From IMG/VR virus record IMGVR_UViG_3300045988_136506: DNA of 41,850 nucleotides; one strand, given 5' to 3'. Under the pieces are notes generated by a model, which was not told the origin of the DNA, made no database searches, and saw nothing but the letters and a program-made list of their open reading frames with translations. The DNA comes from a virus. A program made the translations under genes and the position numbers. This document shows, in pieces, positions 5,594 through 41,850 of the stretch (its first letter is position 1; each line of letters begins with the position of its first letter).

Positions 5594-5785
5594 TTATTCA
5601 GTTTCAATTTTTTGTATTAATGTATTTAAATTCTCAATGTGAGTACGCATAGCCTCAGAATACCCATGAAAGTAATTTATATCACTATCTTTATAAAAGT
5701 TACTATGTAAAACAGTATGTGTGATTCCATCCTTACATAATTCAACTAAATAATTTAATTCTTTAACTATTTCTTTGTTTGTCAT
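5594..5785 (-). CDS. hypothetical protein
   Basis: 63-aa ORF. Confidence 0.35.
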   Translation of the reverse strand: MTNKEIVKELNYLVELCKDGITHTVLHSNFYKDSDINYFHGYSEAMRTHIENLNTLIQKIETE

Positions 5786-5930
5786 TAATATATTCCTCCA
5801 GTTTGTCTTCTCTAATTTTAATTGAGCCGATTTTAACAGCTTCTAAGTTTCCCTTTTTAATCTCATCATAAACAAAGTTACGATTTACTTTTAACATTTT
5901 GGCTACTTCAGTAACAGTGTACAGTAACAT
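5760..5930 (-). CDS. small HTH DNA-binding protein (excisionase / MerR-type HTH_17-like); not in the ORF track because it is under 60 aa
   Basis: Hand translation gives MLLYTVTEVAKMLKVNRNFVYDEIKKGNLEAVKIGSIKIREDKLEEYINDKQRNS. An AGGAGG RBS lies 5 nt upstream. It starts 1 nt after the Cro-like stop. Confidence 0.55.
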
Positions 5931-6313: not shown

Positions 6314-6370
6314 GATTGTGCCTCCTTGTATATGTTTTTTTAACTGTCACGTGTTATTTGCAATAACCCC

Positions 6371-6414
6371 TTGACAGCTTTTATTATACCATTTACAATG
6401 ACATTGTCAATAAC
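6371..6414. promoter_or_regulatory. genetic-switch region: rightward promoter TTGACA-17-TACAAT overlapped by the palindromic operator TGACATTGTCA, with a divergent leftward promoter on the other strand
   Basis: TTGACA at 6371-6376, a 17-nt spacer, TACAAT at 6394-6399. The perfect inverted repeat TGACA-T-TGTCA spans 6399-6409 and is followed by TTTGTCAA. On the minus strand TTGACA (complement of 6405-6410), 16 nt and TATAAT form a face-to-face promoter. Confidence 0.55.
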
Positions 6415-6477
6415 ATTTGTCAAAAATAATAACAATTTAGAAAAAATTAGTTGGGTTTTTGAAAGGTGGTGATAAAT

Positions 6478-6936
6478 ATGGAAACCAACAAAAAATTACA
6501 AGAACTAAGAAAACTCAAGGGTTATAGTCAATCAGAGCTAGCTAAGTTAGTTGGTGTATCCAGAAGTGCAATCGCTGGATATGAAAACGGCTACACTCAG
6601 CCAAGCTTAGAGATACTTTGTAAGCTATGTGAGATATTCAATATATCCATAGATTCATTAATGGATTTTGACAATGTAAATCCTGATAAAGATAAAGTTT
6701 TAAAAAGGTCAAATATAAGAGCTATCAAACCTAAAAAAGTACGTAAAGATAGATCAACCAAAATTAAACAAGTTGTTGTTGTAGAAGTAGATAAAGTTTT
6801 AGATAATCTATATGAAGAAATGATTAAAGCCAACAAAGTCAGTATTAATAAAAAAGATTTAACCAAGGAACAAAAAGAGTTTGTCTTAAAAATAATCAAA
6901 AACACTAACCAATTACTAAGTGAGCTTTATGCTTAG
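6478..6936 (+). CDS. CI-like repressor: XRE HTH N-terminal domain with a ~90-aa C-terminal extension
   Basis: HTH motif LKGYSQSELAKLVGVSRSAIAGYENG. The RBS AAAGGTGGTGA precedes the ATG at 6478. The protein is longer than a Cro and sits on the same strand as, and just upstream of, the integrase, which is the classic repressor-int lysogeny arrangement. Confidence 0.6.
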   Translation: METNKKLQELRKLKGYSQSELAKLVGVSRSAIAGYENGYTQPSLEILCKLCEIFNISIDSLMDFDNVNPDKDKVLKRSNIRAIKPKKVRKDRSTKIKQVVVVEVDKVLDNLYEEMIKANKVSINKKDLTKEQKEFVLKIIKNTNQLLSELYA

Positions 6937-7304
6937 GTAAGGGTTGGTAAGGATTGGTAAGGGTTATTTTGATAAACCCTTACCTTAAAAAAAACCTATT
7001 TTTAGGGCTTTTTTAACAAAAAGGTAAGAGGTAAGTGTTAATAGTTAATTTCTTTTATATATTATTTATAAAACTATTAAATTATGGAAATCATTATAAT
7101 GAATACATATATAATATAAATAATAAAGAAATATATAATAGTAACTCTTACCACTTACCTTTTTTTATCAAAAATCGGACTTTTTTGGCTTAAAAAGGCT
7201 AAAAATTGACTAAAAATATCATTTTTTTAAGGTAAGAGTTCGTATAAAAAACACTTACTTTAACCCTTACCGAACACTTACCAACTCTTACTAACACTTA
7301 CTTT
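6936..7304. repeat. repeat region A: 14 copies of a GGTAAG(G/A/T)GTT decamer (both orientations) flanking an AT-rich ~100-bp core, directly upstream of the int RBS
   Basis: Forward copies at 6936, 6946, 6956, 7023, 7030 and 7231. Reverse copies (AACNCTTACC) at 6975, 7144, 7153, 7251, 7262, 7274, 7284 and 7295; the last five are phased at about 10-12 bp. An inverted pair GGTAAGGGTT-9nt-AACCCTTACC lies at 6956-6984. The AT-rich core is 7040-7140. Confidence 0.8.
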
Positions 7305-7323
7305 TAAGGAGGTTTTAATAAAA

Positions 7324-8436
7324 ATGGCACAAATATCAACACGTAAGAGAGGTAATACATGGGAGTATAGTTTTGAAATAGCATCTGTTGATGGAAAACG
7401 TAAAAGAAAATCAAAAGGTGGATTTAGAACTAAAAAAGAATGTTTAGAAGCTGGAACTAAAGCTAAAGCTGAATATGACAGTTGTGGAACAGTTAATAAT
7501 GAAACAATGATGTCAGTTAGTGACTGGTTAGATATTTGGTATAAAGATTGTATTGATAAAAGATATAAACCAGCTACTAAAGAAACTTATAACTCAGTTA
7601 TTAGACAGATAAAAAGACAGTTTGGTAATTATCGATTAGCTTCTTTAACACCACTTGCAATAAATAAATGGTTCAATGAGTTAATTGATGAAGGTTATGC
7701 TACTAGTACTGTTAGAAATGTTAGAAGAATCTTAAATGGAGCTTTAAATTATGCATATCAAATGTGTGTTATTAAAGAGAATCCGTGCTCTAGAGTTAGA
7801 ATTAAAACTTCAGATTCAGAAAAATTTAAAAATACATTAATAGTTACACCTGATTTATTTGAAAAGATATTAAAAAAATTTGATACTAAAGTAACTTATT
7901 ATAGAATACCATTTCTTATTGGTTGGTTCACTGGTATGAGAGGTGGTGAAGTATTAGGTTTAACTTGGGATGATGTTGATTTTGAAAATAAAACTATTCA
8001 TGTATGTAAAACTCAAACATGGGCATTTAATCAAATTCATATACATTATCCAAAGACACCAAGATCAGTACGTGATATAGCAGTTGGAGATAAGCTTATA
8101 AATGAATTAAAAGCCTGGAGAGAGGTTCAAATAGACAACGCTAATAAATTAGATATGGAAGCTCCTAAATTCATTTGTACAAGAAATAATTTAACATTAT
8201 TAAGCGTTATTAATTTAAGACACCAAAGTATGTCAGTTGCTAGAGAATTGGATATAGATTTTCACTTTCATTGTTTAAGACATACTCATGCTACACTGTT
8301 AATAAAGAATGGAGTATCTGTTAAAGAAGTTCAAGCTAGATTAGGTCATACATCTATACAAACAACATTAGATATTTATACTCATATTAAAGCATCTGAA
8401 AGTATAAAATCAGTTGATGTTTTTGAAAATTTTTAA
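7324..8436 (+). CDS. int: tyrosine recombinase (phage integrase family)
   Basis: Box I: MRGGEVLGLTWDDV. Box II: HCLRHTHATLLIKNGVSVKEVQARLGH...LDIYTH, i.e. H-x-L-R-H ... Y. It has an N-terminal SAM-like arm-binding region and the RBS AAGGAGG. Confidence 0.9.
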   Translation: MAQISTRKRGNTWEYSFEIASVDGKRKRKSKGGFRTKKECLEAGTKAKAEYDSCGTVNNETMMSVSDWLDIWYKDCIDKRYKPATKETYNSVIRQIKRQFGNYRLASLTPLAINKWFNELIDEGYATSTVRNVRRILNGALNYAYQMCVIKENPCSRVRIKTSDSEKFKNTLIVTPDLFEKILKKFDTKVTYYRIPFLIGWFTGMRGGEVLGLTWDDVDFENKTIHVCKTQTWAFNQIHIHYPKTPRSVRDIAVGDKLINELKAWREVQIDNANKLDMEAPKFICTRNNLTLLSVINLRHQSMSVARELDIDFHFHCLRHTHATLLIKNGVSVKEVQARLGHTSIQTTLDIYTHIKASESIKSVDVFENF

Positions 8437-8665
8437 TGTTGACAAATGGTAGACAATTTAACAGTAATACAGCCTCGAAATAAGTAATTAACTTATCCCA
8501 AGGCTTAAATTTACTTTTCTTTTATATTTAAGTAGATTAATAACTAAGAGTATTCAAGTGTAACTAAGTGTTGAAATAATAAGTGTTACAGTTAATATAT
8601 TATATTCTATTATCATTATATGTATTCATTATTAACTTGCTGATTGTTGACAAAATGTTGGCACT

Positions 8666-8698
8666 GAGGGTAATTTTATTACCCTCTTTTATTTTGTT
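8666..8698 (+). terminator. rho-independent terminator downstream of int
   Basis: Perfect hairpin GAGGGTAAT-ttt-ATTACCCTC (8666-8686) followed by TTTTATTTTGTT. Confidence 0.65.
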
Positions 8699-8740
8699 AT
8701 ATTAAATTATCAGAAAATTAAAAATATTTTGAAAATGTTA

Positions 8741-8769
8741 TTGACAATGACAATTCAAAGAGCTAAAAT
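8741..8769 (+). promoter_or_regulatory. sigma-70-type promoter (TTGACA-17-TAAAAT) for the 8798-12776 operon, overlapping TGACAATGACAAT operator-like half-sites
   Basis: TTGACA at 8741-8746, the spacer atgacaattcaaagagc, then TAAAAT. TTGTTGACAAA-type sites also occur at 8448-8460 and 8643-8656. Confidence 0.55.
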
Positions 8770-8797
8770 ATGCGTGTAATCAAAAGGAGGTTACAAT

Positions 8798-9412
8798 ATG
8801 ACAACATTATTAGTAAATTTCACTGAAAGCGAAAAACAAGGAAGAAGATTTATTTATACAGACTATGAAGATATAGTTGTATATAAAGAAAACGAAAACG
8901 ATAGATTAGTTTTTGTTAAAGAAGTAAATCATAAGAAAAATTTATCATCTTTAAATATCAAAATGGAACTTAAAGGTAAAAGAACTAAAGAAGAATTATT
9001 AGAAGCTATTGAAAAAAGAGATAGAAAAATTATAAGAGAAGAAAAAGCTAGAAAAGCTTTAATTAAAAGGGATTTTAGAAAAGTTTTAAATCTTGTTAGA
9101 TACTCCAAAAAGTATGAACAACTATTAAGTATTTATGAAAGAATCTATAATGAAGAAAAAAGAAACGAAATTTTAAAAACATTAATTACATTTAAAAAAA
9201 TTAACAAATCACCTTATTCAAATTCTTTCTATGATAGTGATAATATCGATTGGGATTCCAAACCTGAAGGTTCATTAAGATTGTCCGATCACTGGAACTT
9301 TTACTCTTGGGGAGAACAACACTGTTGCTTAGATTGCACAGATGAATATACTCAAAAATGGTTATTATGCCAATATCAAAATGGCGTTTATCACGTAGTT
9401 AAAGAACTTTAG
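8798..9412 (+). CDS. hypothetical protein (first gene of the int-adjacent operon); charged/basic middle region, Cys/His/Trp-rich C-terminus
   Basis: 204-aa ORF with the RBS AAAGGAGG. The C-terminus reads HWNFYSWGEQHCCLDCTDEYTQKW. No known family is recognised. Confidence 0.5.
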   Translation: MTTLLVNFTESEKQGRRFIYTDYEDIVVYKENENDRLVFVKEVNHKKNLSSLNIKMELKGKRTKEELLEAIEKRDRKIIREEKARKALIKRDFRKVLNLVRYSKKYEQLLSIYERIYNEEKRNEILKTLITFKKINKSPYSNSFYDSDNIDWDSKPEGSLRLSDHWNFYSWGEQHCCLDCTDEYTQKWLLCQYQNGVYHVVKEL

Positions 9413-9424
9413 GAGAAAATAAAT

Positions 9425-9814
9425 ATGTGGAAAAATATTCAAATCAACAAACAAAATATTAAAGCTGAAACTATGAAAGCAGTATTAATCCAGATGCCAC
9501 ACAATTCAAATTACGATGGTTTCAGTTTCTGGCATCCTTCAAAATTAGTAAGAACTGGCTACAATTCAAACGCTTTAAGTATTGGTTATAATGATGATTT
9601 TACTTTTAAATTAATTAAGCATGGTAAAGGTAAATATAATTCAAGAGATATTATAGCTGAAGAAGTAATAGGTGTTGAAGAATTTGAAGAAGCTTTTGGG
9701 GCAATGAATGAAAATATTACTGCCCCTCATACAAAAAATATTTATGAAACACACAAACCAGCTCCACTGGAAGTAAAAGAAGTTTCAGTATTGGATGAAT
9801 TGAAAGATGAATAA
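9425..9814 (+). CDS. hypothetical protein
   Basis: 129-aa ORF with an RBS GGAG 8 nt upstream. Its stop overlaps the start of the next gene (ATGAATAA). Confidence 0.5.
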   Translation: MWKNIQINKQNIKAETMKAVLIQMPHNSNYDGFSFWHPSKLVRTGYNSNALSIGYNDDFTFKLIKHGKGKYNSRDIIAEEVIGVEEFEEAFGAMNENITAPHTKNIYETHKPAPLEVKEVSVLDELKDE

Positions 9815-11021
9815 TCAAGAATTAGCAATTGCTAAATTATCCAAATTAAAAGTCGGTGCTTTGTTCATGGAAATGGGTACTGGTAAAACAAAAGTTGCAC
9901 TTGATTTGATAGCTTCTAAAAAAGATAAAATTAATTACATTCTTTGGATTTGCCCATTTTCAATTAAACAAGAAATCGAACAAGAACGCCTAAAGTGGCA
10001 TCCTGAGCTAAAAATAGACATTATAGGTGTTGAAACTATTTCACAAAGTAGTAAAGAATATTTGAGAGTTTTTAACAAAGTAATTGAATCAAAATCATTC
10101 ATTGTAGTGGATGAAAGTCTTAAAATTAAGAATATGACCGCCAAAAGAACTAAGCGGATACTTAAGCTTGGAAGCTATGCCAAGTACAAGCTTATCTTGA
10201 ACGGAACACCTCTATCAAAAAATGTCCTTGATTTATACCCCCAAATGGAGTTTTTATCCCCTAAAATACTCAATATGTCTATTACCCAATTCCGAAATCA
10301 GTATTGCGAATATTACCTTCAAGGAAGGCTTAAAAACAAGGTTAAAAAACAATATAACATTGAACATTTAGTTTCATTAATAAAACCATACATATTTGAC
10401 AGTAAACTAGATCTTGGCAAGGATAAGACTTACCACCAAATAAATTACTCAATCGAAGACCTGGAAGAATATGAAAACATTAAACATGGCTTTCTTGGAT
10501 TTGATAATGATATTGCGTTCTTCTCTTTGGCTACACTACTCCAGAAGCATTATTGCACTCAAAAAAGTAGACTTGAGCTAATGAGAAAAACAATAAATTC
10601 TATTGATGGGCAAGTGATAGTATTTGTTAAATATCTTGACAGTATCCCTAGTGAAGAAACTCACAAGATTATTGGTGATATGAGTAATTCTAAAAGAGAT
10701 ACTATCATCCAGGAATTTAGAGAAGGTAAATTTAAAACACTGTACATAACTTATGGTTGTGGTTCATTCGGTTTAAATTTACAAAATTGCAGAAACATTA
10801 TATTTGCTGATCATACTTTTGATTATTCCCAACGGATTCAAGCTGAAGCTAGAATATTCAGAATGGGGCAAGAATATGATGTTGATTACTATGATATGAA
10901 TTGCAATTGTGGATTGGATAAACTTATCCGTGGATGCTTAAACAAAAAAATTAAATTACTTGATGAAGTTAAAGAAGAAATTGAAAAGAAAGGAGTTGAA
11001 GAATGGCTAAAAACTATTTAG
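9807..11021 (+). CDS. SNF2-like ATPase/helicase; a short second paralogue of the gene at 4285..5574
   Basis: Motif I MEMGTGKTKVALD, motif II VVDESLKIKN, motif VI QRIQAEARIFRMGQ. The 404-aa ORF overlaps the downstream gene by 19 nt. Confidence 0.7.
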   Translation: MNNQELAIAKLSKLKVGALFMEMGTGKTKVALDLIASKKDKINYILWICPFSIKQEIEQERLKWHPELKIDIIGVETISQSSKEYLRVFNKVIESKSFIVVDESLKIKNMTAKRTKRILKLGSYAKYKLILNGTPLSKNVLDLYPQMEFLSPKILNMSITQFRNQYCEYYLQGRLKNKVKKQYNIEHLVSLIKPYIFDSKLDLGKDKTYHQINYSIEDLEEYENIKHGFLGFDNDIAFFSLATLLQKHYCTQKSRLELMRKTINSIDGQVIVFVKYLDSIPSEETHKIIGDMSNSKRDTIIQEFREGKFKTLYITYGCGSFGLNLQNCRNIIFADHTFDYSQRIQAEARIFRMGQEYDVDYYDMNCNCGLDKLIRGCLNKKIKLLDEVKEEIEKKGVEEWLKTI

Positions 11022-12277
11022 ATAAAAATGTATATCAGCTAGCACTAGAACGCATAGCTTATTTATTTAATGAGTTTGATAATGTTCTAGTGGCTTTTAG
11101 TGGTGGAAAAGATAGTACTGTATGTCTTGAGTTATGCTATGACTATGCTAAGGAAAACGGCTTATTAAACAAGTTGTCAATGTATCACTTAGATTATGAA
11201 GCTCAATACCAAATGACTACCGATTTTGTAGATGAAACGTTCAAGCGCTATTCTGATATTGAGAGATATTGGCTTTGTCTTCCAATTAAAGCTCAATGCT
11301 GTACTAGTATGACATCTGGGTATTGGATTCCATGGGAAGAATCTAAAAGAGCTATTTGGGTTAGAAAAATGCCTACATATGATTACGTTATTAATCAGCA
11401 TAATTGCCAGTTTGATTACCACGGCTTTGATTATGATGTTCAAGATAGATTTTGCGATTGGTTTAAATCAAAACACGGTAAAACAGCTGTTGTAATAGGA
11501 ATAAGAACGGATGAATCGTTAAACCGATTTAGAGCAATAGCGAGTGATCACGCTGTTAAATATAAGGGTAAATCATGGATTAATGGAAACAAGGCTTATC
11601 CAATTTATGATTGGCATGTTCAAGATGATTGGATATATTTTGGAAAGTTTGCTAAGCGATACAATAAGTTATATGATTTGTACTATCAATCTGGGCTAAG
11701 CGTTGACCAAATGAGAGTCGCAAGTCCATTCAATGATTGTGCATCAAACACCTTAAAACTCTATAAAGTTATTGATCCAAATAACTGGGGAAAGATGATT
11801 GGTAGAGTTAACGGTGTTAATTTTACCGCTATTTATGGTGGAACTACTGCTATGGGATGGAATAAAATAACTAAACCTAAAGATTTTACATGGAAGCAGT
11901 ATTGTTATTTTTTGCTCAATACTTTGGATGAAAAAACAAAGCAACATTACTTAAACAAATTAAACACTTCAATTAAGTTTTGGAAAGATAAAGGCGGTTG
12001 TTTAAGCGATGAAACAATTAAAGAATTGCAAAAAGACAACATTAATTATATAGATAAAGGCTATACCAGTAATTATAGTACCAATAAAAAAGTAATTGCA
12101 TTTAATGACTATTTAGATGATACAAATGTAACCAATTTTAAAGAATTACCAACATATAAACGTATGTGTATTTGTATAATTAAAAATGACTATTATTGTA
12201 AATATATGGGCTTTAGCCAAACCAAAAATGAAATAGAGAAAAGAAAGAGAGCTATAGAAAAATATGCAAAATTATAA
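11003..12277 (+). CDS. PAPS-reductase-family (PP-loop ATP pyrophosphatase) protein, IbrA-like
   Basis: PP-loop AFSGGKDSTVCLEL near the N-terminus. The 424 aa size with a long C-terminal extension matches IbrA-type proteins. It is translationally coupled to the downstream ParB-like gene. Confidence 0.7.
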   Translation: MAKNYLDKNVYQLALERIAYLFNEFDNVLVAFSGGKDSTVCLELCYDYAKENGLLNKLSMYHLDYEAQYQMTTDFVDETFKRYSDIERYWLCLPIKAQCCTSMTSGYWIPWEESKRAIWVRKMPTYDYVINQHNCQFDYHGFDYDVQDRFCDWFKSKHGKTAVVIGIRTDESLNRFRAIASDHAVKYKGKSWINGNKAYPIYDWHVQDDWIYFGKFAKRYNKLYDLYYQSGLSVDQMRVASPFNDCASNTLKLYKVIDPNNWGKMIGRVNGVNFTAIYGGTTAMGWNKITKPKDFTWKQYCYFLLNTLDEKTKQHYLNKLNTSIKFWKDKGGCLSDETIKELQKDNINYIDKGYTSNYSTNKKVIAFNDYLDDTNVTNFKELPTYKRMCICIIKNDYYCKYMGFSQTKNEIEKRKRAIEKYAKL

Positions 12278-12776
12278 ATCACCAGTTTACAATGTTAAAG
12301 CTGTACCAATAGAAAAGATACAAGCAAACGCTTATAACCCTAATCATGTTGCCGTGCCAGAAATGAAGCTTCTTTATAAGTCAATTCTTGAAGATGGATA
12401 TACTATGCCAATAGTGTGTTATTATCTTAAAGATCAAGATAAATATGAAATTGTAGATGGATTCCATAGATATAGAACAATGCTGGAACACAAGGATATT
12501 TACGAACGTGAAAATGGATGTCTTCCAGTAGTTGTAATTGATAAAGATTTATCCAATAGAATGGCTTCAACCATCCGCCATAATAGAGCTAGAGGTTCAC
12601 ATTCGATTGAATTAATGACTAATATAGTTGCTGATTTAGTTAAGAGTGGAATGTCGGATGCATGGATTATGAAAAATATAGGTATGGATGCTGAAGAACT
12701 TCTTAGACTTAAGCAAATAAGCGGACTTGCTGAGTTATTCAAGGATAAAGAGTTCAGTAAAGGTTGGGAAGAATAG
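12264..12776 (+). CDS. ParB/Srx-fold nuclease-domain protein, IbrB-like
   Basis: ParB N-domain motif VDGFHRYRT and the Arg-rich segment HNRARGSHS. The 170-aa ORF overlaps the PAPS-reductase gene by 14 nt. Confidence 0.7.
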   Translation: MQNYKSPVYNVKAVPIEKIQANAYNPNHVAVPEMKLLYKSILEDGYTMPIVCYYLKDQDKYEIVDGFHRYRTMLEHKDIYERENGCLPVVVIDKDLSNRMASTIRHNRARGSHSIELMTNIVADLVKSGMSDAWIMKNIGMDAEELLRLKQISGLAELFKDKEFSKGWEE

Positions 12777-13648: not shown

Positions 13649-14320
13649 CTAAGTTGTGATTGTGATTAATTCAAGCGGATAATTTGAGAAATAGCCCCAT
13701 TCATTGGTTGCGACTTGATCAGCGACTGCTCTAAAGTATTCACTATCAGAAGTGCCTATTGTGCCTTGATTTGGAAATGCGTTTAAAACTAACTTGATAC
13801 TATTCCCACTTATATTATAAGATGCTCTAAATGTTTTTGCACTACCATTTGTGTCAATTACTCCTGTTTGTGATTCATCATTATATCTGTTAAATACATG
13901 GCTTGAAACAATACACATGTTATTAGGAAGTTTAGTGATACTGAAGTAACCATCATTCGTATTACTAAAACACACTAGAGATGTGAATGTAACACCTACA
14001 CTACCCATAGCTAAAGTAACTTCGTTTGGATAAACTAGTTCTCCATCATCATTTTCAGTTGCTTCAGGAACGGTAACATTAAATCCACTAAAACTACCAG
14101 CTGTTATAGCTTCACTAATTACTGGTGTATCACCACTACTACTCCCAGTTGGAATAGATAATATACACTGTGCTAAATTAGCTGAATTCTTATTTGTTGG
14201 TATAGATGTTGCCTTTTTAGTAATACAAGCGTTGTAAGCATTGCTAATATTGGATTTAAGCCCATTTATAGCCGTTTCTAGGCTTGTTAAATCAAAAGCC
14301 ATATATTTACACTCCCCCAA
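13649..14320 (-). CDS. tail-tip / receptor-binding-associated structural protein (hypothetical)
   Basis: 223-aa Ser/Thr/Asn-rich ORF overlapping the Tal-like gene by 14 nt. It shows no lysin motifs. Confidence 0.4.
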   Translation of the reverse strand: MGECKYMAFDLTSLETAINGLKSNISNAYNACITKKATSIPTNKNSANLAQCILSIPTGSSSGDTPVISEAITAGSFSGFNVTVPEATENDDGELVYPNEVTLAMGSVGVTFTSLVCFSNTNDGYFSITKLPNNMCIVSSHVFNRYNDESQTGVIDTNGSAKTFRASYNISGNSIKLVLNAFPNQGTIGTSDSEYFRAVADQVATNEWGYFSNYPLELITITT

Positions 14321-15734
14321 TCAAATTAGCCAGTCTATCAAACGCATTTTGAACATCAGCTTTTAAAGCGTATTTACTTAAATCAGTATCACTACCAGTA
14401 CCTTTTTGGCGGTTAAAGAAGTCTTTAGTCTTATTGTCAAAGTCATTATTTTTTACATAATCTTTTAACTTATTATCATAATCTTTAAACTCATTGTCAT
14501 AATCCTTAAAGTTATTATTATAATCGTTAAACTTTTTATCATAATCATTGAAAGTTTTTTTAGTTTCATCAATCTTTTTAGAAGCTGAACTATTAATATC
14601 TATTGATATTCTTTCTTCATCACCAAGTACAATAGTAGTTTTATCTGGTTGATTTATATTAATTGTCATTTTTTGGACTATCATATAATTATCATCCAGC
14701 TTGTGAACTAAACTATATACTTTTACTTTTTGTCCTACTCGGAATGATTCGATATTAACATCTAACAGGTGTAAATCAAAAGCGTTTAATTCTATGTTTT
14801 TGGCTAACTTTTTATAGTAGTTAAGCTGTTCTTTAGCGTTTTTAACTAATTGTTGTGTGTCTTTTTCGACTCCATCCCACACTAGTACTTTAAATATCTT
14901 ACCGTATGTTTGAACTGCTTTTTCATCGTAGATATAATCAGTACCTTTTTCATGCTTGATAGTTCCATCAGTAAAATCTTCAACATCCGTAATATCTAAC
15001 TTATACTCGACTTTTTCTTCATCCTTACCATCAGTTTTAGTTGTTGCACCTAAAGGAATAATAGCTGTGGCTATTTCTTCACCTTTAATAGTTCTAGTTA
15101 AAGTTAATAAGTTTTTACCAAATTGAATTATTTGATTATTGACTGGTAATTGTTTAGAAGTAAGATAATCCAAGTATTTAATATTGTTGTGAATTCTAGG
15201 TATTAAATAAGTGTGATTAAAAGTATTTATCAAATCTTCATTTAAAGTTGTTAAAGTATCATCATAAGAAGATATCTTATAAAATGTGGCGGAAGAATCG
15301 ACTTCAGTAACGTTACCTACACTGAACTGCTTATATTGATCTACTTGTGAATTGTGGATGTTAATAACATCAGTCAAGTAGTCTTTAATTTTAGTATCAC
15401 CTTTTAATGAATATGATTTGGCTCTTTGAACTGAGTCTAACAAGTATCCCAGCATACCTTCACAAGAAATAGTTTTAAAATTATAAATATCAGTTTCATC
15501 ATTTAAAACTCTTCCGCAAAAGATTACATCACCATCTTGGACTAAATAAACTTCGGATAAATGCTTTTTTATATCACTAAAATATGGATGTGTTGGACTA
15601 ATTTTAAAGCTGAGTGAGCCAGTCTTATTAAGCTCTAGCTCACAAACAGCATTTGCAACTTTTAAGTTGTTACTTCTCGAATCGTGAATAATATATCTTT
15701 CACCATCGTGGTTATCCATAATTATTTGATACAT
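14307..15734 (-). CDS. tail-associated protein (Tal-like; siphovirus 'prophage tail endopeptidase' family position)
   Basis: 475-aa ORF immediately after Dit, with its start overlapping the Dit stop. The C-terminus carries the reiterated motif (K/N)DYD(K/N)(K/E)F: NDYDKKFNDYNNNFKDYDNEFKDYDNKLKDY. Confidence 0.55.
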   Translation of the reverse strand: MYQIIMDNHDGERYIIHDSRSNNLKVANAVCELELNKTGSLSFKISPTHPYFSDIKKHLSEVYLVQDGDVIFCGRVLNDETDIYNFKTISCEGMLGYLLDSVQRAKSYSLKGDTKIKDYLTDVINIHNSQVDQYKQFSVGNVTEVDSSATFYKISSYDDTLTTLNEDLINTFNHTYLIPRIHNNIKYLDYLTSKQLPVNNQIIQFGKNLLTLTRTIKGEEIATAIIPLGATTKTDGKDEEKVEYKLDITDVEDFTDGTIKHEKGTDYIYDEKAVQTYGKIFKVLVWDGVEKDTQQLVKNAKEQLNYYKKLAKNIELNAFDLHLLDVNIESFRVGQKVKVYSLVHKLDDNYMIVQKMTININQPDKTTIVLGDEERISIDINSSASKKIDETKKTFNDYDKKFNDYNNNFKDYDNEFKDYDNKLKDYVKNNDFDNKTKDFFNRQKGTGSDTDLSKYALKADVQNAFDRLANLIGGV

Positions 15735-27156: not shown

Positions 27157-28191
27157 TTATACCTCATAAAATGGAATTAATAGTGAAACTATAATAACAT
27201 CATCCACATTTGTAGTTGGAATTGACAGTATATGTGTTTGAGTGTGATATGTTCCAGGATGTCCTGTTTCATCAAAATCCAAATTATGAAAAGTGAATAA
27301 TCCACTAGTAATTTCCTCAGCACTATTACGCTTATGATAGTAGTATAAACCTGATTTAGTAAGTGTCACATAATAGCATTCTGGTTCTTCTTCTGAGTCA
27401 AACGCACCAGTTAATACTGTGTTAATAGATTTTACTTTAGTAACATCTGCACTAGTTAATACTGTGTTAATAGATTTTACTTTAGTAACATCTGCACTAG
27501 TTAAATCTAAAGCTGGAATAACAGTATTATCAACTGCGGTTGTTTCAGCAATAGCAATTTGAACGCTATATGTTGCTCCATTAGTAAATGTGAAAACTAA
27601 ATTTCCGCTTTGGTCTTTACTTAATCCAGTGATAACTGCACCTTCAACTATAAGTCTCCACTTAGTTGTATCAGTTGGTAATATTCCAGTAATTTCAGCA
27701 TCACTAATACACATGTAAGAGGAATAGTTGTAATATACAATGTTAGGTCTTTTATAAGCCTTTGTTGAGTCATAATCACTTACATAAAGTCCATTTAAAA
27801 TAGCTTTAGCTTGAAGCTCTATTTCTTCAATTTCGGCTATTTCTTCATTACTTGGTTGAGTGTAATTGGTCGGTTTTAATCTTGGAATAATTGGAATTGT
27901 AATAGATTTGATAGTTTTATAGGTTAAGCCAGTATTTGTATAGATATAGGCTAGAATATCGTATTTTTCACCTAGAAGTGTGTTAGGAATTGATACTTCA
28001 CAAGTTCCATCATTTTTAAGTATGCCTTGAACTGCTAAAGCTTCAATTGATTTCTTATTGCAAAAATGTACTTTTGGGCTAACAGCTTCAAAATCAATAC
28101 CGCTTATTACAAGTGTTTGGTATGAGTCCCATTGGTAGAGGTTCTCGGTTGTTAAATCGTTTATCGATTCATTAAATTCAGCTTTTATCAT
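27157..28191 (-). CDS. hypothetical protein translationally coupled to MuF; contains a perfect 15-aa tandem duplication
   Basis: 344-aa ORF overlapping the MuF gene by 14 nt. The peptide SADVTKVKSINTVLT occurs twice. Confidence 0.5.
   Translation of the reverse strand: MIKAEFNESINDLTTENLYQWDSYQTLVISGIDFEAVSPKVHFCNKKSIEALAVQGILKNDGTCEVSIPNTLLGEKYDILAYIYTNTGLTYKTIKSITIPIIPRLKPTNYTQPSNEEIAEIEEIELQAKAILNGLYVSDYDSTKAYKRPNIVYYNYSSYMCISDAEITGILPTDTTKWRLIVEGAVITGLSKDQSGNLVFTFTNGATYSVQIAIAETTAVDNTVIPALDLTSADVTKVKSINTVLTSADVTKVKSINTVLTGAFDSEEEPECYYVTLTKSGLYYYHKRNSAEEITSGLFTFHNLDFDETGHPGTYHTQTHILSIPTTNVDDVIIVSLLIPFYEV
27411..27500. repeat. perfect 45-bp x 2 tandem duplication inside CDS 27157..28191
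   Basis: 27411-27455 is identical to 27456-27500 (ttaatactgtgttaatagattttactttagtaacatctgcactag). A degenerate partial third copy follows. Confidence 0.85.
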
Positions 28192-30570: not shown

Positions 30571-31938
30571 TTAGTAAAGCCATTGTCCTATTGGCTGATT
30601 ATGTTCATAAACACCTGTTACGGCATCTGGACAGTCATCATGTGCGTTTTTACCTTCTTTTTGATACCTTATCATCATATCCGCAAACTCAGGATATTTA
30701 TCAATCCAGTTATGAGGGTAAAACACATGAGCCATAACTGAAGCGCTGTTTGAAAATATTCTAGCTTGCTTATTTTCACTTTGGTGAAACCATTGGATAT
30801 TCGTATGAGTGTTTTTTAATTTTTGACATTCAGTTTTTACATTTCTTGCAAAACTTCGACCGCCATTATTAGATTCAATAATAGCACAACCCACTTTATC
30901 TTTAGTTACCATTTTAGCCACCATTGGTTCAGTTACTTCCATAGGCTCTTTAGTACAAACTATATCAAGTATGTAATAATCTTCTCCAACAACTAAATAA
31001 TCAATTGAGCATAAATAGTCTTCTCCAGTATCAGCCGTATCAGTGTAATTAAGAATATATTTATAATTCTTTGGTAATTCGGTATAAGTTTTGAATTGAG
31101 TATATAAGCGACCTTTAATATCGATTGGCTCTTGTTGATAGTTAGCTTCAACTATCTCCTTACTCATTGACTTAGTTTTAAATAAAAAATCTTCTTTGTT
31201 TAAAATTTCATCACATAGCATTGAGCCGTTTTCTTGAAGTGCTTTATAGTTGATATGTCTACATGGATAGTTATCTAGTATATAGCCAGCTAAGTCTTTT
31301 TTAGCCCATCTAGTCATGATTATGATTAACTTAAATCCACTCTCAGTACGTGATAGCATTGTGTCCGTAAACCAGCTTATATGCTTATTTAGCGTGTTTT
31401 CGTTAAAAGCTTCTTCACTTGATTTAATCAAGTCATCAATAATCATAATGTTACAACCAAATCCAGTTGCAGTACCATTTGGTGATGTTGCCAGATAGTT
31501 CGTTTGTTGAGAACCTTCCAAAGCCCATTTATTAGCGCTTGATTCACCACGCTTAACTTTTGTATCAGGGAATATATCAGAATAAGACAATATACCTTGT
31601 GTTTTTTCTTCAAGAATTGCATCACGGACTTGTTTAGCAAAAGTCATAGATAATGTTTCATTGTATGATCCAGTCATAACTTTGTTGTGAATAGATTGAC
31701 CAAATAACCATTTTACGAATTGTGTAGCAGTTCTACTTTTTCCGTGTCTCGGTGGTAAATTGATTACCAGGATTTTTTCATCCGATTCGTAGAAGCTTTG
31801 AAGCTGATAGCACATGTCTTTTAAGAATGGTCTTGACTCTCTATAAAAATCTGAAGCAGTTAATTTACAAAATTCCCAAAAATCCCTACGTGCTAACTCA
31901 AGCTTAGCTTGATAAATTATTTCACTTGGAATCCCCAT
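30571..31938 (-). CDS. terminase large subunit
   Basis: P-loop PPRHGKS; the ATPase is followed by a nuclease domain. The ORF is 455 aa and follows TerS with a 17-nt overlap. Confidence 0.85.
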   Translation of the reverse strand: MGIPSEIIYQAKLELARRDFWEFCKLTASDFYRESRPFLKDMCYQLQSFYESDEKILVINLPPRHGKSRTATQFVKWLFGQSIHNKVMTGSYNETLSMTFAKQVRDAILEEKTQGILSYSDIFPDTKVKRGESSANKWALEGSQQTNYLATSPNGTATGFGCNIMIIDDLIKSSEEAFNENTLNKHISWFTDTMLSRTESGFKLIIIMTRWAKKDLAGYILDNYPCRHINYKALQENGSMLCDEILNKEDFLFKTKSMSKEIVEANYQQEPIDIKGRLYTQFKTYTELPKNYKYILNYTDTADTGEDYLCSIDYLVVGEDYYILDIVCTKEPMEVTEPMVAKMVTKDKVGCAIIESNNGGRSFARNVKTECQKLKNTHTNIQWFHQSENKQARIFSNSASVMAHVFYPHNWIDKYPEFADMMIRYQKEGKNAHDDCPDAVTGVYEHNQPIGQWLY

Positions 31939-32493: not shown

Positions 32494-33297
32494 CTACCAT
32501 TTATTGCTTCCAGCTTTAATAGTTTTACTCATTGTTATAGCATTTCTACTTAAGATATTATAGTAACCCCCACCGCTAGTAATTACATTATACCCTTTTG
32601 CCATAGCATATATACTAACTGCTGATGATTGATCACATTTACGTAATGCTTTACCTAACTTTGAACCACTTCTCATTTCACTTAGCATACCACTAGTTGC
32701 TTTACTATAAGTAATTATCTTGGCATTGGAATTTAATTTAGCTCTAACAACAGCTGTTTTCTTAATATTACCTCTAGTATTACCATAAAGGTTTGATTCA
32801 CCATAATCATCGGCAAAATAAATACCTCTACCATAAACTGAACCACCACTATCAGATACTCTAGTAACTGAACCACGTTGAACTTGTGATGCGATTGTAT
32901 CAGCATCCCACCTCATTCTATTTGTGCTATCATTAACTGAATTGACTGTTCTGAATAGTTCAGTTCCATTCATTGTATCAAGTACATTGTCATCTACTAA
33001 TTGAGGTTTGTCGTTTAAGCCCAAATTATACGTAAATTTTTGGAAGTCATTATCAGCTAAGAATACTGGGGCATCTTGAGATGCTAAATTTGATATTGCA
33101 TCAGCTTTTTGGTCATCACTCATATCCATAAAATTATTATAGTTTGTGCTAAATGATTGAGCTTGTTGGGTTGTATCAACTTGTGGTTGGGTTTGTTGTA
33201 CCTGAGAATTTTGAGGATTAACTTTTTGTGTAGCTGCATTAACAGTTGATGCAGATGATCCAGCGGTTCTCTTTCCCCCACGTGATGATTTAGCCAT
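32494..33297 (-). CDS. ADP-ribosyltransferase-like protein (PARP-like GIYFA motif) sharing its N-terminus with the upstream ART
   Basis: N-terminus MAKSSRGGKR followed by a Q/S/T/N-rich linker. ELFRTV supplies an Arg; YGRGIYFADDYGE supplies a PARP/ART-like G-I-Y-F-A motif. 267 aa. Confidence 0.4.
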   Translation of the reverse strand: MAKSSRGGKRTAGSSASTVNAATQKVNPQNSQVQQTQPQVDTTQQAQSFSTNYNNFMDMSDDQKADAISNLASQDAPVFLADNDFQKFTYNLGLNDKPQLVDDNVLDTMNGTELFRTVNSVNDSTNRMRWDADTIASQVQRGSVTRVSDSGGSVYGRGIYFADDYGESNLYGNTRGNIKKTAVVRAKLNSNAKIITYSKATSGMLSEMRSGSKLGKALRKCDQSSAVSIYAMAKGYNVITSGGGYYNILSRNAITMSKTIKAGSNKW

Positions 33298-33422: not shown

Positions 33423-34169
33423 TTAAAATGTTTCAACATCTAAAATAACTCTTGGTCTTGAGCCTTTATTTCTAGGTGTTGCATATGTTCCATCATAATG
33501 AATACCTGTAATTCTTAAATTAGTGCCTTTATTCATTACAATTTCACTTTGAGCTTTAGCCCCTAAAACAACTTTACTATTGCTAGAAGCTTTAATATTC
33601 ATCACCACTTCTCTACCACCACCTAAAGGTTGATTAGGCGCAAATGGTGATTTACTAGCGTTATATGAGGTACTCATATATGCTGTTGTTTTTAATTCAG
33701 TACCAATTAATTTTGATTGTAATTGTGAATCGCTTAATTTTGTATAATCGCTAATACCGCACTTTTGTAAAATATCATCATGACAGTATCTTACTAAGTT
33801 AGTATCTTTACCTAAATCGTGCATACCGTTTTGTAGATTATCATTAATCCACCTTTCAGTTGCATTTAAAGGTAATCCATTATCCAATTTGTAATTCATA
33901 GATTGTGAATATGAATAGCCTTGACTATCTACCGCATCTGATATGTACATTTTTTGAGCTGATACAAAGTCAGGGTCTTGATATGAATCAGCATTAGCAC
34001 TAATAATTGCTTGTGCATCATTATCATCCATATTTTGATATGATCTAGTTTGAGTTGTGTTTATATTACCAGTTTGTCTAGCTGGTGTATTAGATTGAGC
34101 TATTGAAGCCCCTCTTCCTGGGTTTGGTGCAACACCACCTCTTCTTCCACCTCTTGAACTTTTAGCCAT
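33423..34169 (-). CDS. R-S-E class ADP-ribosyltransferase (C3/iota-like motif spacing)
   Basis: N-terminus MAKSSRGGRR. Arg region LVRYCHD, STS motif YMSTSYN about 40 aa later, and Q-x-E (AQSEIVMN) about 40 aa after that. The spacing matches binary-toxin/C3 ARTs. 248 aa. Confidence 0.55.
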   Translation of the reverse strand: MAKSSRGGRRGGVAPNPGRGASIAQSNTPARQTGNINTTQTRSYQNMDDNDAQAIISANADSYQDPDFVSAQKMYISDAVDSQGYSYSQSMNYKLDNGLPLNATERWINDNLQNGMHDLGKDTNLVRYCHDDILQKCGISDYTKLSDSQLQSKLIGTELKTTAYMSTSYNASKSPFAPNQPLGGGREVVMNIKASSNSKVVLGAKAQSEIVMNKGTNLRITGIHYDGTYATPRNKGSRPRVILDVETF

Positions 34170-35190
34170 TATTCCACCTCTTGCTTGTAAAACTTTCTAT
34201 AAACTCTATATTGCCTTTTAAGCCATCTACTTTACTTCCATAAACTAAAATCTTACTAGGCTTTAGAGTTTCAATCATTGTGTTATATTCACGCTTGAAA
34301 TAGTCTTTTAATTCTTGTGAATTAGTCCACATACTTGATATAGCAACTATTCCACCTTTAGGTTCACCCTCTAAATAAAACTCTAGTGAGCGTTCATCCG
34401 TTGAAGCTTTAATACACGGTATTATATTTACTCCACGTTCTTGTAAATATTTAGCTACCCAATGTTTACGATAATGATTAAATATTTGAGTTGCCAATGG
34501 CATATCACCATAAGGACTAAAATCTGGTGCAATTACTGCGCCATATTCACTTAGCTTCTTTACATATGCATCTGGATTGTTCCAAATTCTTATAAACTGG
34601 TAATCATCAATAAAGAAATGTACACCCTTATTTTTACTAGGTGCTTTATCGGATAGTACATAATTAAATCCTATCCACTCGGTTATATCAGGTATGCTAT
34701 AGACTGGCTCTAATGGTGGTATATCATATTTGCCCACTCCTGGGAATTGAGCTATCTCTAAGTTTAAAATATTAGCAACTCGCTTTTGAGTCTTACTTTG
34801 TTCCTCTTTATGTTCCTCTTCTTCATCCACAAATTCAAAACCAAATTGTCCCATATCAATATTGATATCTTCCAATTCTAGTTCTATCATATCCCAATCA
34901 AACTCGGATTCGGCTACTTTATTATGAGCTAAAGTATATGCTTTTCTTTGTTCATCGGTGAGATTATCCAAGCGGATGCAAGGGACTTCAGTCATGCCTA
35001 ACTTTTTACAAGCTAGATATCTACCGTGTCCCTCAACGATTATATTGTCTTTCCCCCATATGCCTATTGGATCATTCATTCCAAATTCCCTAATTGAGTT
35101 CATAATCTCTTCAACTTGCTTCTTAGGGTGTTTCTTGGCGTTATTCTTATAAGGGGTTAATTTTTCAATGCTTATATTTTCAATTTTCAT
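34162..35190 (-). CDS. ParB/Srx N-terminal nuclease-like domain fused to a C-terminal DUF4417-like domain
   Basis: N-terminal ~95 aa (KLTPYKNNAKKHPKKQVEEIMNSIREFGMNDPIGIW...EGHGRYLACKKLG) are closely similar to the N-terminus of the ParB-MTase at 40230..41411. 342 aa. Confidence 0.6.
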   Translation of the reverse strand: MKIENISIEKLTPYKNNAKKHPKKQVEEIMNSIREFGMNDPIGIWGKDNIIVEGHGRYLACKKLGMTEVPCIRLDNLTDEQRKAYTLAHNKVAESEFDWDMIELELEDINIDMGQFGFEFVDEEEEHKEEQSKTQKRVANILNLEIAQFPGVGKYDIPPLEPVYSIPDITEWIGFNYVLSDKAPSKNKGVHFFIDDYQFIRIWNNPDAYVKKLSEYGAVIAPDFSPYGDMPLATQIFNHYRKHWVAKYLQERGVNIIPCIKASTDERSLEFYLEGEPKGGIVAISSMWTNSQELKDYFKREYNTMIETLKPSKILVYGSKVDGLKGNIEFIESFTSKRWNNG

Positions 35191-35224
35191 CAGTTAGTCA
35201 CCACTTACTTACTTTTTACTTACT

Positions 35225-35274
35225 TACTTAAGAATGTAAAAGACTGAACACAAAGGAGGTACAAAAACATCAGT
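35225..35274. repeat. perfect 14-bp inverted repeat (ATGTAAAAGACTGA / TCAGTCTTTTACAT) with a 22-nt loop containing AAGGAGG, in the late-operon leader
   Basis: Read directly. In the minus-strand late transcript the loop carries CCUCCUUU. It is flanked at 35206-35232 by (ACTTACTT)n repeats. Confidence 0.6.
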
Positions 35275-35345
35275 CTTTTACATGTCAAGAAAGGAGGTTG
35301 TAAGAGCACCTTAACTCTTACTACTAAATTATATATTTTTTATTA

Positions 35346-35374
35346 AAATTATACAATATCAACAAATATCAACT
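35346..35374 (-). promoter_or_regulatory. putative activator-dependent late promoter: tandem TTGATATT(T)G direct repeats immediately upstream of TATAAT, no -35
   Basis: Minus-strand read: TTGATATTTG TTGATATTG TATAAT. It lies just downstream of the ArpU terminator and upstream of the packaging operon. Confidence 0.45.
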
Positions 35375-35375
35375 T

Positions 35376-35407
35376 TTATAAACAAAAAGACTAGGAATAA
35401 GTCCTAG
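35376..35407 (-). terminator. rho-independent terminator after the ArpU-like gene
   Basis: CTAGGA-ataag-TCCTAG, followed on the minus strand by TCTTTTTGTTTAT. It overlaps the ArpU stop codon. Confidence 0.5.
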
Positions 35408-35706: not shown

Positions 35707-35738
35707 TGCTGTTCCTCCTGGTATCAAAAAATCAAAAA

Positions 35739-36035
35739 GGTAAGAGGTAAGGGTTACTATATATATATTCTTTTATATTTTATATTTTTACTATTTTTTC
35801 TTAATTTTTATATATTTTTATATATTTTTTACTAAATATAAAAGAAATTTGCCTTTGAACTCCAACCCTTACCTTTTTGTTAAAAAACCTAGTATTTAAG
35901 GCGTTTTTTGAGGTAAGGGTTTGTCTATTTAACCCTTACCAACTATTACCCAACCCTTACCTTTTTAACAATTTTTAGGTAAGAGGTAAGTGTTCAGGTA
36001 AGTGTCGGTAAGTGTTTATTCAACGAACCCTTACC
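35739..36035. repeat. repeat region B: 12 copies of the GGTAAG(G/A/T)GTT decamer in both orientations around an AT-rich core; homologous to region A
   Basis: Forward copies at 35739, 35746, 35912, 35978, 35985, 35997 and 36007. Reverse copies at 35864, 35931, 35941 (degenerate), 35952 and 36026. It shares the 17-mer GGTAAGAGGTAAG(T/G)GTT and the GGTAAGGGTT-9nt-AACCCTTACC inverted pair with region A. The AT-rich core is 35760-35860. Confidence 0.8.
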
Positions 36036-36045
36036 GCTAAAAGTG

Positions 36046-41483: not shown

Positions 41484-41850
41484 TTATTTGTTTTCTTTTT
41501 CAACAATCTCCTTAGATTCTTCTTGAAGAATAGGTTCGTGAACTTCTTTGATTTCTTCTTCAGTCAATTTAAAATCAAATAGTTTAATTACTTTTTCAAA
41601 GAACATTCTATATTCATACTCTTCGATAACCTTTGGCATATTTAATTCTTTAAGTCTTAAGATTCTTTTAGCGTATATTTCCAATAAACCATATCTATCG
41701 TAAGCCTTAAGTAAATTTGATTGAACGTTATTAAAATCTGCTTCATAAAGTTCTATATCTTCTTTAGGAATTGCATCCATCATATTCCAGATTGATTCAT
41801 ATCCTGGAACTGTCATGCAGTAATATTCATAAACCTTTTGCTTTTTTTCA
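41484..41850 (-). CDS. hypothetical protein; C-terminal 110+ aa of the wrap-around ORF, whose true start lies beyond the window end at the position equivalent to 190
   Basis: Track ORF 41484..41816. Positions 41817-41850 are identical to 86-119 and continue the reading frame upstream (see feature 1..190). Confidence 0.5.
   Translation of the reverse strand, partial: EKKQKVYEYYCMTVPGYESIWNMMDAIPKEDIELYEADFNNVQSNLLKAYDRYGLLEIYAKRILRLKELNMPKVIEEYEYRMFFEKVIKLFDFKLTEEEIKEVHEPILQEESKEIVEKENK
41732..41850. repeat. 119-bp exact terminal repeat of positions 1-119, marking the closure of a circular/permuted 41,731-bp genome
   Basis: Compared directly: taaaatctgcttcataaagttctatatcttctttaggaattgcatcc... 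is identical at both window ends. Confidence 0.9.

Follow-up and report, generated by a model that had tools for sequence, protein, structure and literature searches.

The window analysed here, a 41,850-nt stretch of DNA recorded as IMG/VR virus record IMGVR_UViG_3300045988_136506, comes from an AT-rich (31% GC) phage of the temperate type. Its ends are identical over a 119-bp terminal overlap (1-119 and 41732-41850), and the window is therefore a circular assembly of ~41.7 kb in which one open reading frame (ORF) is split across the ends. In this study, we consider the spacer that follows the tyrosine integrase gene int, together with a family of decamers, RGTAAGNGTT, that clusters in two modules: module A between int and the gene of a CI-like repressor, and module B downstream of the gene of a P4-family primase/superfamily 3 (SF3) helicase (Table 1). 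Neither of the two regions compared had a match among 50,697 phage records (megablast). An initial annotation had read decamer copies in the spacer and in the leader of the late genes as parts of a dispersed regulon. We consider another reading probable, if some way from certain, in which the spacer is a phage attachment site (attP) with a terminator and a promoter behind it, the decamers serve as origin iterons, and the "extra copies" have no relation to one another and are of three kinds. The architecture of the DNA, the homologies and the conservation or non-conservation in relatives were observed directly; any binding by proteins, firing of origins or recombination is inferred.

The int-distal spacer is most likely an attP with a terminator and a promoter attached. 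The window has only two copies of GTTGACAAA, at 8438 and 8646, each serving as first unit in a tandem pair of repeats. These pairs are putative arm-type sites of Int, which has an N-terminal arm-binding domain (PF14657, E 2.5e-7, 30.6 bits, cut-off 22.3). Both pairs are kept in the relatives L011 and L090 (Int 45-48% identical), and the sequence between the pairs is not conserved. In L089, the nearest diverged relative, the DNA from the int stop to the distal pair is identical bar single-base differences, and divergence sets in right after 8663. The Int N-terminus, MAQISTRKRG(N/S)TWEYSFEI, is near-identical in relatives whose iterons differ but whose TTGACAA repeats are kept. A sister clade (Int 38% identical) shares this design, its pairs being GGTGGCAAAT: on free phage contigs there is a pair at both spacer ends, and prophages such as L012 and L025, on contigs where trkH, trkA and hisS come after int, have kept the int-proximal pair only. 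The integrated forms part from the phage form after TTTTAACAAAGCCTTA, ~80 bp past the proximal pair; the pairs flank this junction, and arm-type repeats are thus found on both sides of the crossover region. A 55-aa excisionase-family protein is also encoded in the window (39.9 bits against TIGR01764, cut-off 28.8). The GTTGACAAA pairs, their conservation in relatives, the integrated forms of the sister clade and the excisionase-family gene at 5763-5930 therefore support the attP that the initial annotation had already suggested for this spacer.

In detail, the attP would be of the lambda type and extend over ~8437-8663, with a GTTGACAAAT-like pair of Int arm-type sites at each end and the crossover site within the AT-rich centre between them. 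The best short-spacer inverted repeat in this centre (8504-8532) lies 47-75 bp from the proximal pair, compared with ~80 bp between the crossover boundary and its pair in the sister clade. The terminator at 8666-8696 would close the int transcript, and the promoter at 8724-8769, whose -35 region has ~30 bp in common with the early leftward promoter (6392-6427; inverted repeat I4), would drive the cargo operon downstream. A hairpin after the proximal pair (8470-8504) is possibly an int terminator as well; at the equivalent place, L011 has a clearer terminator hairpin. The attP of lambda contains arm-type and core-type Int sites, with Xis sites in the P arm. Common to both phages are an arm-binding tyrosine Int, a central crossover region flanked on either side by repeats of the arm type, and an excisionase-family gene; in contrast to lambda, the putative arm sites are here tandem pairs at the extremities, ~190 bp apart, and the core is only a candidate.

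We conclude that the decamers represent iterons of two predicted replication-origin modules of the type known from Staphylococcus aureus pathogenicity islands (SaPIs), phage-inducible chromosomal islands (PICIs) and phage P4, and not an operator code. Modules A and B are mutually inverted paralogues, separated by 12.6 kb around the circle, with 14 and 12 iterons, respectively; the G at position 2 is invariant in all 26. RGTAAGNGTT occurs 21 times in the window against 0.89 expected from shuffles, and 19 of these copies are in the two modules. Inner iteron pairs, 7 bp apart, face each other across a core of ~105 bp with 10-12% GC. In module A, the iterons at 7023 and 7030 (+) and at 7143 and 7150 (-) enclose a core of 103 bp (7040-7142, 9.7% GC); in module B, those at 35739 and 35746 (+) and at 35864 (-), the last accompanied by one degenerate unit, enclose a core of 108 bp (35756-35863, 12% GC). 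SaPI origins have iterons immediately 3' of rep, with an AT-rich centre and at least two iterons per side in opposite directions, and the iterons are recognised by the C-terminal winged helix of a self-loading SF3 helicase (PMC9371898); the same origin description was given for PICIs (PMC6092414). Both modules likewise have an AT-rich centre with at least two short, oppositely oriented iterons on each side. The iterons of module B, but not those of module A, are found just downstream of the initiator gene; module B begins 415 bp past the helicase stop and, unlike in the islands, two small ORFs lie between them. Further differences from SaPIs and PICIs are that the window comes from a temperate phage of 41.7 kb, which itself encodes a DNA polymerase, and not from a satellite, that the iterons are 10-mers in 12-14 copies per module, and that there are two complete inverted modules, the second of them in the lysogeny module before int.

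The putative initiator is an SF3 helicase here too. It scores 180 bits against the P4-family primase model TIGR01613 (cut-off 108.7), contains the domains PF08706 and PF19263 and matches PriRep5 of SaPI5 (PDB 7OLA, E 1.6e-35), the resemblance covering the core and the C-terminal domain. In profile comparisons, its last 120 aa match residues 659-747 of 7OLA at E 1.5e-3 and RFX winged helices at E 0.26-0.5. We infer that the iterons of module B, by the primase-helicase gene, and of module A, between cI and int, would be bound by this putative C-terminal winged-helix domain. A winged helix is also described for the alpha protein of phage P4 (PMC2777425).

A pattern scan of viral contigs for the inner iteron pair found the same architecture in unrelated contigs, with GGTAAC or GGTAAG iterons. 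In several of them, the module lies directly 3' of an SF3 primase-helicase gene whose product ends in a similar ...K-I-D/N-G-x-x-Y... motif. A module directly follows the helicase gene in L224, L287, L195, L204, L206 and L215. Eighty relatives of the helicase were fetched and five inspected in detail; all five have the origin layout 3' of the helicase gene. Five distinct helicase C-termini are paired with five iteron sequences (the set GGTTACRGTT, TACGGTT, GTAACGG, ATGTGTAA and GGTAACAGTT), and in this qualitative comparison, which took in L224, L235/L287, L253, L267 and L296, iteron specificity goes with the cognate initiator. Within one relative genome, IMGVR_UViG_3300045988_142655 (helicase 89%, Int 45% identical), modules A and B occupy positions equivalent to those in the window and share one changed iteron, GGTAACAGTT. 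Many viral contigs thus have, beside a gene for an SF3 primase-helicase, inner paired iterons of another sequence around an AT-rich core, which makes the origins of such phages easy to call. In L195, L196, L204 and L207, a GGTAAC-type origin has on one side the gene of a DUF5906 primase-helicase of 752 aa and on the other that of a Q-type antiterminator; the order of origin, then late regulator, therefore recurs across very different phages.

Phage P4 combines its alpha protein with an iteron-bearing ori and a distant cis replication region, crr, which is needed. P4 and the window have in common a P4-family primase (TIGR01613) with a C-terminal origin-binding domain, which is here predicted, and two separate iteron regions per genome, whereas the N-terminal part of the protein is here of the D5_N type and not of the DnaG type, and the iteron sequence is unrelated. 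A full origin-like module between the repressor gene and int is present in three lineages with three different iterons, GGTAAG in the window, GGTAAC in L090 and TGTATAAG in L011. In the natural variant ERR11569245, positions 6465-8405 (cI, module A and int) are precisely lost at a 23-bp microhomology (6442-6464 and 8406-8428), while the attP spacer and everything else are kept (L219 3250-4050). This variant looks like a virulent derivative. Because it still assembles as a 39.6-kb contig, module A seems dispensable for lytic growth, in contrast to the crr that P4 requires. Module A may act as a further origin, as an element comparable to crr of P4, or as a gate that controls the expression of int. 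An element that is not an iteron, AAAC..(C)ATAAATA..GG, is kept between outer and inner iterons regardless of the iteron sequence; another factor, itself conserved, might bind there.

Table 1. Coordinates of genes and sequence features in the window.
Feature	Position	Strand	Remarks
Early genes	leftward from divergent promoter ~6330-6430, running over the circle origin		methylase, DNA polymerase, primase-helicase
Excisionase-family helix-turn-helix protein, 55 aa	5763-5930	(-)	candidate recombination directionality factor; TIGR01764, phrog_66
CI-like repressor gene	6466-6936		strand opposite to late genes
Module A	6930-7310	(+)	between cI and int
AAAC..(C)ATAAATA..GG element	6990-7012, 35885-35908		L011 120-140; L090 2705-2730; also 3' of helicase gene in L235, L253, L267, L287, L296
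Tyrosine integrase gene int	7324-8436	(+)	PF14657, PF14659, PF00589
Int-distal spacer	8437-8797		361 bp
Int-proximal pair, putative arm-type Int sites	8437-8457	(+)	TGTTGACAAAT-GGTAGACAAT; begins one base past int stop
Hairpin, possible int terminator	8470-8504	(+)	AGCCT..ATAAGT-aatt-AACTTAT..AGGCT and T-rich run; read from sequence
Candidate core	8504-8532		CTTAAATTTA-cttttcttt-TATATTTAAG; best short-spacer inverted repeat between arm pairs
Phased array of four YAAGWG units	8544-8587	(+)	CTAAGAG, TCAAGTG, CTAAGTGTT, ATAAGTGTT; spacing 10/10/15
AT-rich segment	8575-8633	(-)	reverse complement like module A core and one inner iteron (7095-7150); 15-nt exact match ATAATGAATACATAT
Int-distal pair, putative arm-type sites	8645-8663	(+)	TGTTGACAAAATGTTGGCA; ~190 bp downstream; second unit TTGACA in variants
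Intrinsic terminator	8666-8696	(+)	9-bp stem GAGGGTAAT/ATTACCCTC and T-run
Cargo-operon promoter	8724-8769	(+)	TTGACA 8741, 17-nt spacer, TAAAAT 8764; 11/12 consensus positions
Cargo operon	8798-12776		downstream of spacer
Late genes	from ParB-DUF4417 (34162-35190) via terminase gene (30571-31938) and tail genes to 13015		
(GTAAGTAA)n element	35203-35230	(-)	by ParB-DUF4417 ribosome-binding site; stop codons in all three frames
5' hairpin of late leader	35300-35321	(-)	GUAAGAG-UUAAGGUG-CUCUUAC; AACTCTTACT (35313-35322) is one arm
GTTGATATT direct repeats	35355-35373	(-)	just 3' of terminator of sigma-like gene, upstream of TATAAT; conserved in L115, L224
Module B	35728-36045	(-)	after helicase gene; followed by gene of 107-aa sigma-region-4-like regulator, then 213-bp leader
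P4-family primase/SF3 helicase gene	36460-38364	(-)	putative iteron-binding initiator
DNA polymerase gene	38361-40205		

The decamer-like copies outside the modules had been described as three half-sites at ~8560-8600, repeats at 35206-35232 by the ribosome-binding site (RBS) of ParB-DUF4417, and an exact match between 35311-35320 and 7284. All these motifs are present, at coordinates shifted by 1-3 bases. In the spacer, TAAGTGTT is exact at 8565-8572 and 8580-8587, the supposed third copy reads CAAGTGTA (8555-8562), and a fourth unit, CTAAGAG, is found at 8544-8550; near the RBS, ACTTACTT starts at 35203, 35207, 35218 and 35222; and identical copies of AACTCTTACT occupy 35313-35322 and 7283-7292. 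Outside the modules, however, the core is not confined to non-coding leaders, as had been claimed. With a position weight matrix (PWM) built from the 26 module copies, the lowest module score is 11.8, and four coding sites reach at least this value, at 22075 (16.1), 26137 (13.4), 39428 (12.7) and 15145 (12.0), as do two sites in the late leader, at 35313 (13.2) and 35200 (12.1). Among sites outside the modules, the TAAGTGTT copies of the spacer come at about rank 44, with a score of just 5.99. TAAGTGTT as such occurs 11 times in the window (3.49 expected from shuffles), five times outside the modules; like the two outside copies of RGTAAGNGTT, this is close to the shuffle expectation. Comparison of intergenic with coding DNA outside the modules, as the initial annotation had proposed, gave a mixed outcome that varies with the motif definition: full sites are found twice in non-coding DNA against 0.19 expected (P ~0.02), and at a permissive PWM threshold the count is ~4 against 2.

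The four spacer units match the iteron at 8, 6, 9 and 9 of 10 positions. They resemble its 3' eight bases, with two exact 8-mer matches, and all four lack the position-2 G that is invariant in the iterons. Other comparable YAAGWG clusters in the window are tandem iteron arrays only. The spacers of L090 and L011 contain no counterpart of the array. Similarity of the adjoining AT-rich segment (8575-8633) to module A gave a score of 48 against 31.7 +/- 5.2 in shuffles, 1% of which reach 48, and the spacer-to-module similarity is not significant in L090 or L011. The array is in our reading a lineage-specific, iteron-like feature of the putative distal attP arm, between the candidate core and the distal pair. 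It may consist of sites for a protein that assists at attP, either the excisionase-like protein or a bending factor; it may be what is left of a decayed origin module; or it may be a weak initiator site, the first two being perhaps the likelier. The position of these phased direct repeats, between candidate core and distal arm, is where lambda has its Xis sites. Phased direct repeats at attP are also bound by the excisionases P2 Cox and 186 Apl, which in addition bind such repeats at a switch promoter; these two would be the closest precedent if the HTH_17 excisionase-like protein bound the spacer and the tandem arrays; however, the module architecture tracks the helicase gene and not the excisionase gene in other phages.

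The late leader of the window was compared with those of L115, the closest relative with the same iterons, and L224, which has GGTAAC iterons. Four elements are common to the three leaders: the GTTGATATT repeats, the 5' hairpin, a second hairpin with a ACCUCCUU loop, and AGTAAGTAA(A/G)AAGTAAGT. The stem of the 5' hairpin differs per phage (GTAAGAG/CTCTTAC, GTAAGGGTG/CACCCTTGC and GAGGGT/ACCCTC). In L115, hairpin and repeat element are kept and neither leader site has the consensus, the hairpin arm having C at position 1 and G at position 10. The leader repeat of L224 remains GTAAGTAAG (GTAAG) despite the GGTAAC iterons. When spacers and leader of relatives were scanned with their own PWMs, the top scores were 3.7, 0.8 and 0.8, compared with at least 13.8 and 15.0 in the modules; in the GGTAAC relative, the attP spacer reached 3.7 and the late leader 0.8, with a module minimum of 13.8. 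Because the L115 arm is off consensus, the L224 repeat stays GTAAG and the own-PWM maximum is 0.8, the leader copies are not iteron-family sites. The "extra copies" would thus be of three kinds: the YAAGWG array in the distal attP arm, one arm of a conserved leader hairpin, and a conserved (GTAAGTAA)n element before the first late gene.

The GTTGATATT repeat element is a candidate late promoter or activator site, where the late regulator would act. This regulator matches sigma-70 region 4 models and no ArpU model, and a viral-contig scan for the sigma-like protein gave no confirmed relative. The leader RNA (35191-35403, -) contains two ACCUCCUU stretches, one of them in the loop of a 12-bp hairpin (35236-35281), which match the anti-Shine-Dalgarno sequence at the 3' end of 16S rRNA. 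Immediately ahead of the RBS, the (GUAAGUAA)n run creates a stop codon in every reading frame; L115 and L224 have kept this run as well as the ACCUCCUU stretches. With a fold z-score of -2.9, the late leader may be a translational or stability control element.

Several results weigh against the reading of the spacer as attP and of the decamers as origin iterons without further role. The C-terminal winged-helix assignment stands on the profile match at E 1.5e-3, and a single-sequence AlphaFold model of this domain, with helices followed by a terminal beta-hairpin, is too poor to use (predicted local distance difference test, pLDDT, 47.6). The spacer array is not random: YAAGWG is found on one strand at 8545, 8555, 8565 and 8580, and none of 20000 shuffles reached four. 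Half-site TAAGNGTT is nominally enriched in non-coding DNA outside the modules (5 against 0.62 expected); the three copies outside the spacer lie in a terminator loop (12922) and in hairpin arms (35313 and 41468). The spacer array, which lies next to the segment similar to the module A core, may truly be connected with the iteron system. A full origin-like module before int is not accounted for by this reading, and a natural variant does without it. No attB, attL or attR of this phage was found, and the inverted repeat at 8504-8532 is for this reason only a candidate core. All contigs with the exact Int or the exact 204-aa neighbour are shorter than 50 kb and in the phage arrangement, with no integrated form among 53 and 58 collection blocks. 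The closest Int in species-representative genomes is only 48% identical and on a 3-kb contig, a metagenome scan for the proximal arm pair gave no match, and a scan with the 20-mer 8495-8514 gave five chance matches, none extending. Since its contigs are all below 50 kb and in phage configuration, the integration of this phage can be deduced from relatives only.

An unlikely alternative makes the initiator itself a coordinator, in that the winged helix of the primase-helicase would also bind the G-less attP array and the two leader sites at low affinity, with the modules gating int and the late sigma-like gene. It would account for a non-random array that is phased like the tandem iteron arrays and has two exact matches to the iteron 3' 8-mer, and for a neighbouring segment that resembles the module A core; it also agrees with the module-then-late-regulator order in many relatives and with a module before int kept across three iteron specificities. 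However, the iteron G found in 26/26 module copies is missing from 4/4 spacer units, relatives with other iterons have no spacer or leader counterpart, and in the closest relative neither of the leader sites fits the consensus any longer. In a more elaborate version, initiator concentration would time integration or excision and late transcription, module A gating int, module B gating the sigma-like gene, and the array and leader sites serving as graded low-affinity sites; we regard this version, which keeps the single coordinating protein of the initial annotation but replaces its identity, as quite improbable. The origin-like module before int in three lineages and the degenerate iteron-like array in attP hint at a link between initiator and integration module.

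We also find it improbable that the phage does not integrate and uses Int and the spacer repeats for dimer resolution or circularisation in a Cre-lox-like manner, the spacer being a resolution site. The circular assembly and the lack of any integrated form among the 53 and 58 collection blocks, where every contig is below 50 kb, agree with such a function, but Int contains an arm-binding domain and is accompanied by an excisionase-family protein, a CI-like repressor is encoded, and sister-clade elements of the same spacer design sit in bacterial chromosomes.

The regulon proposed in the initial annotation, in which one ParB/KorB- or CI-like protein acts on the decamer at int, the late activator gene, the spacer and the packaging leader and coordinates integration, replication and late transcription, is in our view very improbable. 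KorB/ParB-type proteins, as in RK2, are global regulators with dispersed operators, and the only likeness here is the recurrence of one short motif at several places in the genome. Decamer arrays do abut the RBSs of int and of the sigma-like gene, and the 213-bp late leader contains two full-consensus sites (P ~0.02 against the coding rate). However, 19 of the 21 motif copies are in the two origin modules, and the dispersed ones, in leader and spacer, are not conserved in relatives. The three encoded ParB_N proteins (ParB_N with DUF4417, with a methylase domain, or alone) have no partition-type, sequence-specific DNA-binding domain in Pfam, and two of them score 31.4 and 23.0 bits against TIGR00180 (cut-off 58.45). 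Among 80 loci with ParB-DUF4417 relatives, the decamer was found in the same phage species only; the motif is therefore not tied to ParB-DUF4417. These findings contradict a regulator of the ParB/KorB kind. Candidate CI operators belong to another motif, of the TTGACAAT type. It is scarcely more credible that the decamers are Int arm-type or excisionase sites, with module A as the real attP and the spacer merely a terminator and promoter: Int does contain an arm-binding domain, and module A, with its AT-rich centre between inverted arrays, abuts int, but a second module exists by the helicase gene, 12.6 kb off around the circle, the same modules follow SF3 helicase genes in phages without an adjacent int, and the junction of the sister Int clade is downstream of int. 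This assignment was rejected on the variation of the decamers (GGTAAG in the window, TGTATAAG in L011, GGTAAC in L090) beside a constant Int N-terminus and constant TTGACAA repeats.

For the annotation of this uncultured gut phage, the favoured reading of attP and origin iterons turns the decamer arrays into predicted SaPI/P4-type primase-helicase origins and the spacer into a putative attP, with no regulatory network; origin modules and attP are ordinary members of kinds already known. The window contains no tRNA and no Rfam family. Between attP and the lysis genes, the cargo operon (8798-12776) encodes two unknown proteins, an SNF2 helicase (ZorD/DpdE/DrmD-like), a 3'-phosphoadenosine-5'-phosphosulfate (PAPS) reductase and DUF3440 protein (weakly DndC-like) and a ParB_N-only protein, and looks like a moron of the defence or DNA-modification type. 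Two ADP-ribosyltransferase-like genes, one weakly PARP-like (32494-33297) and one of the exoenzyme type (33423-34169), are placed between the terminase genes and ParB-DUF4417. In-gene tandem repeats are present in the late-gene block at 27404-27504 and 14451-14558, the latter inside the Prophage_tail gene (14307-15734); the former consists of 45 bp in 2.2 copies at 98% identity, the latter of 21 bp in 4-5 copies.

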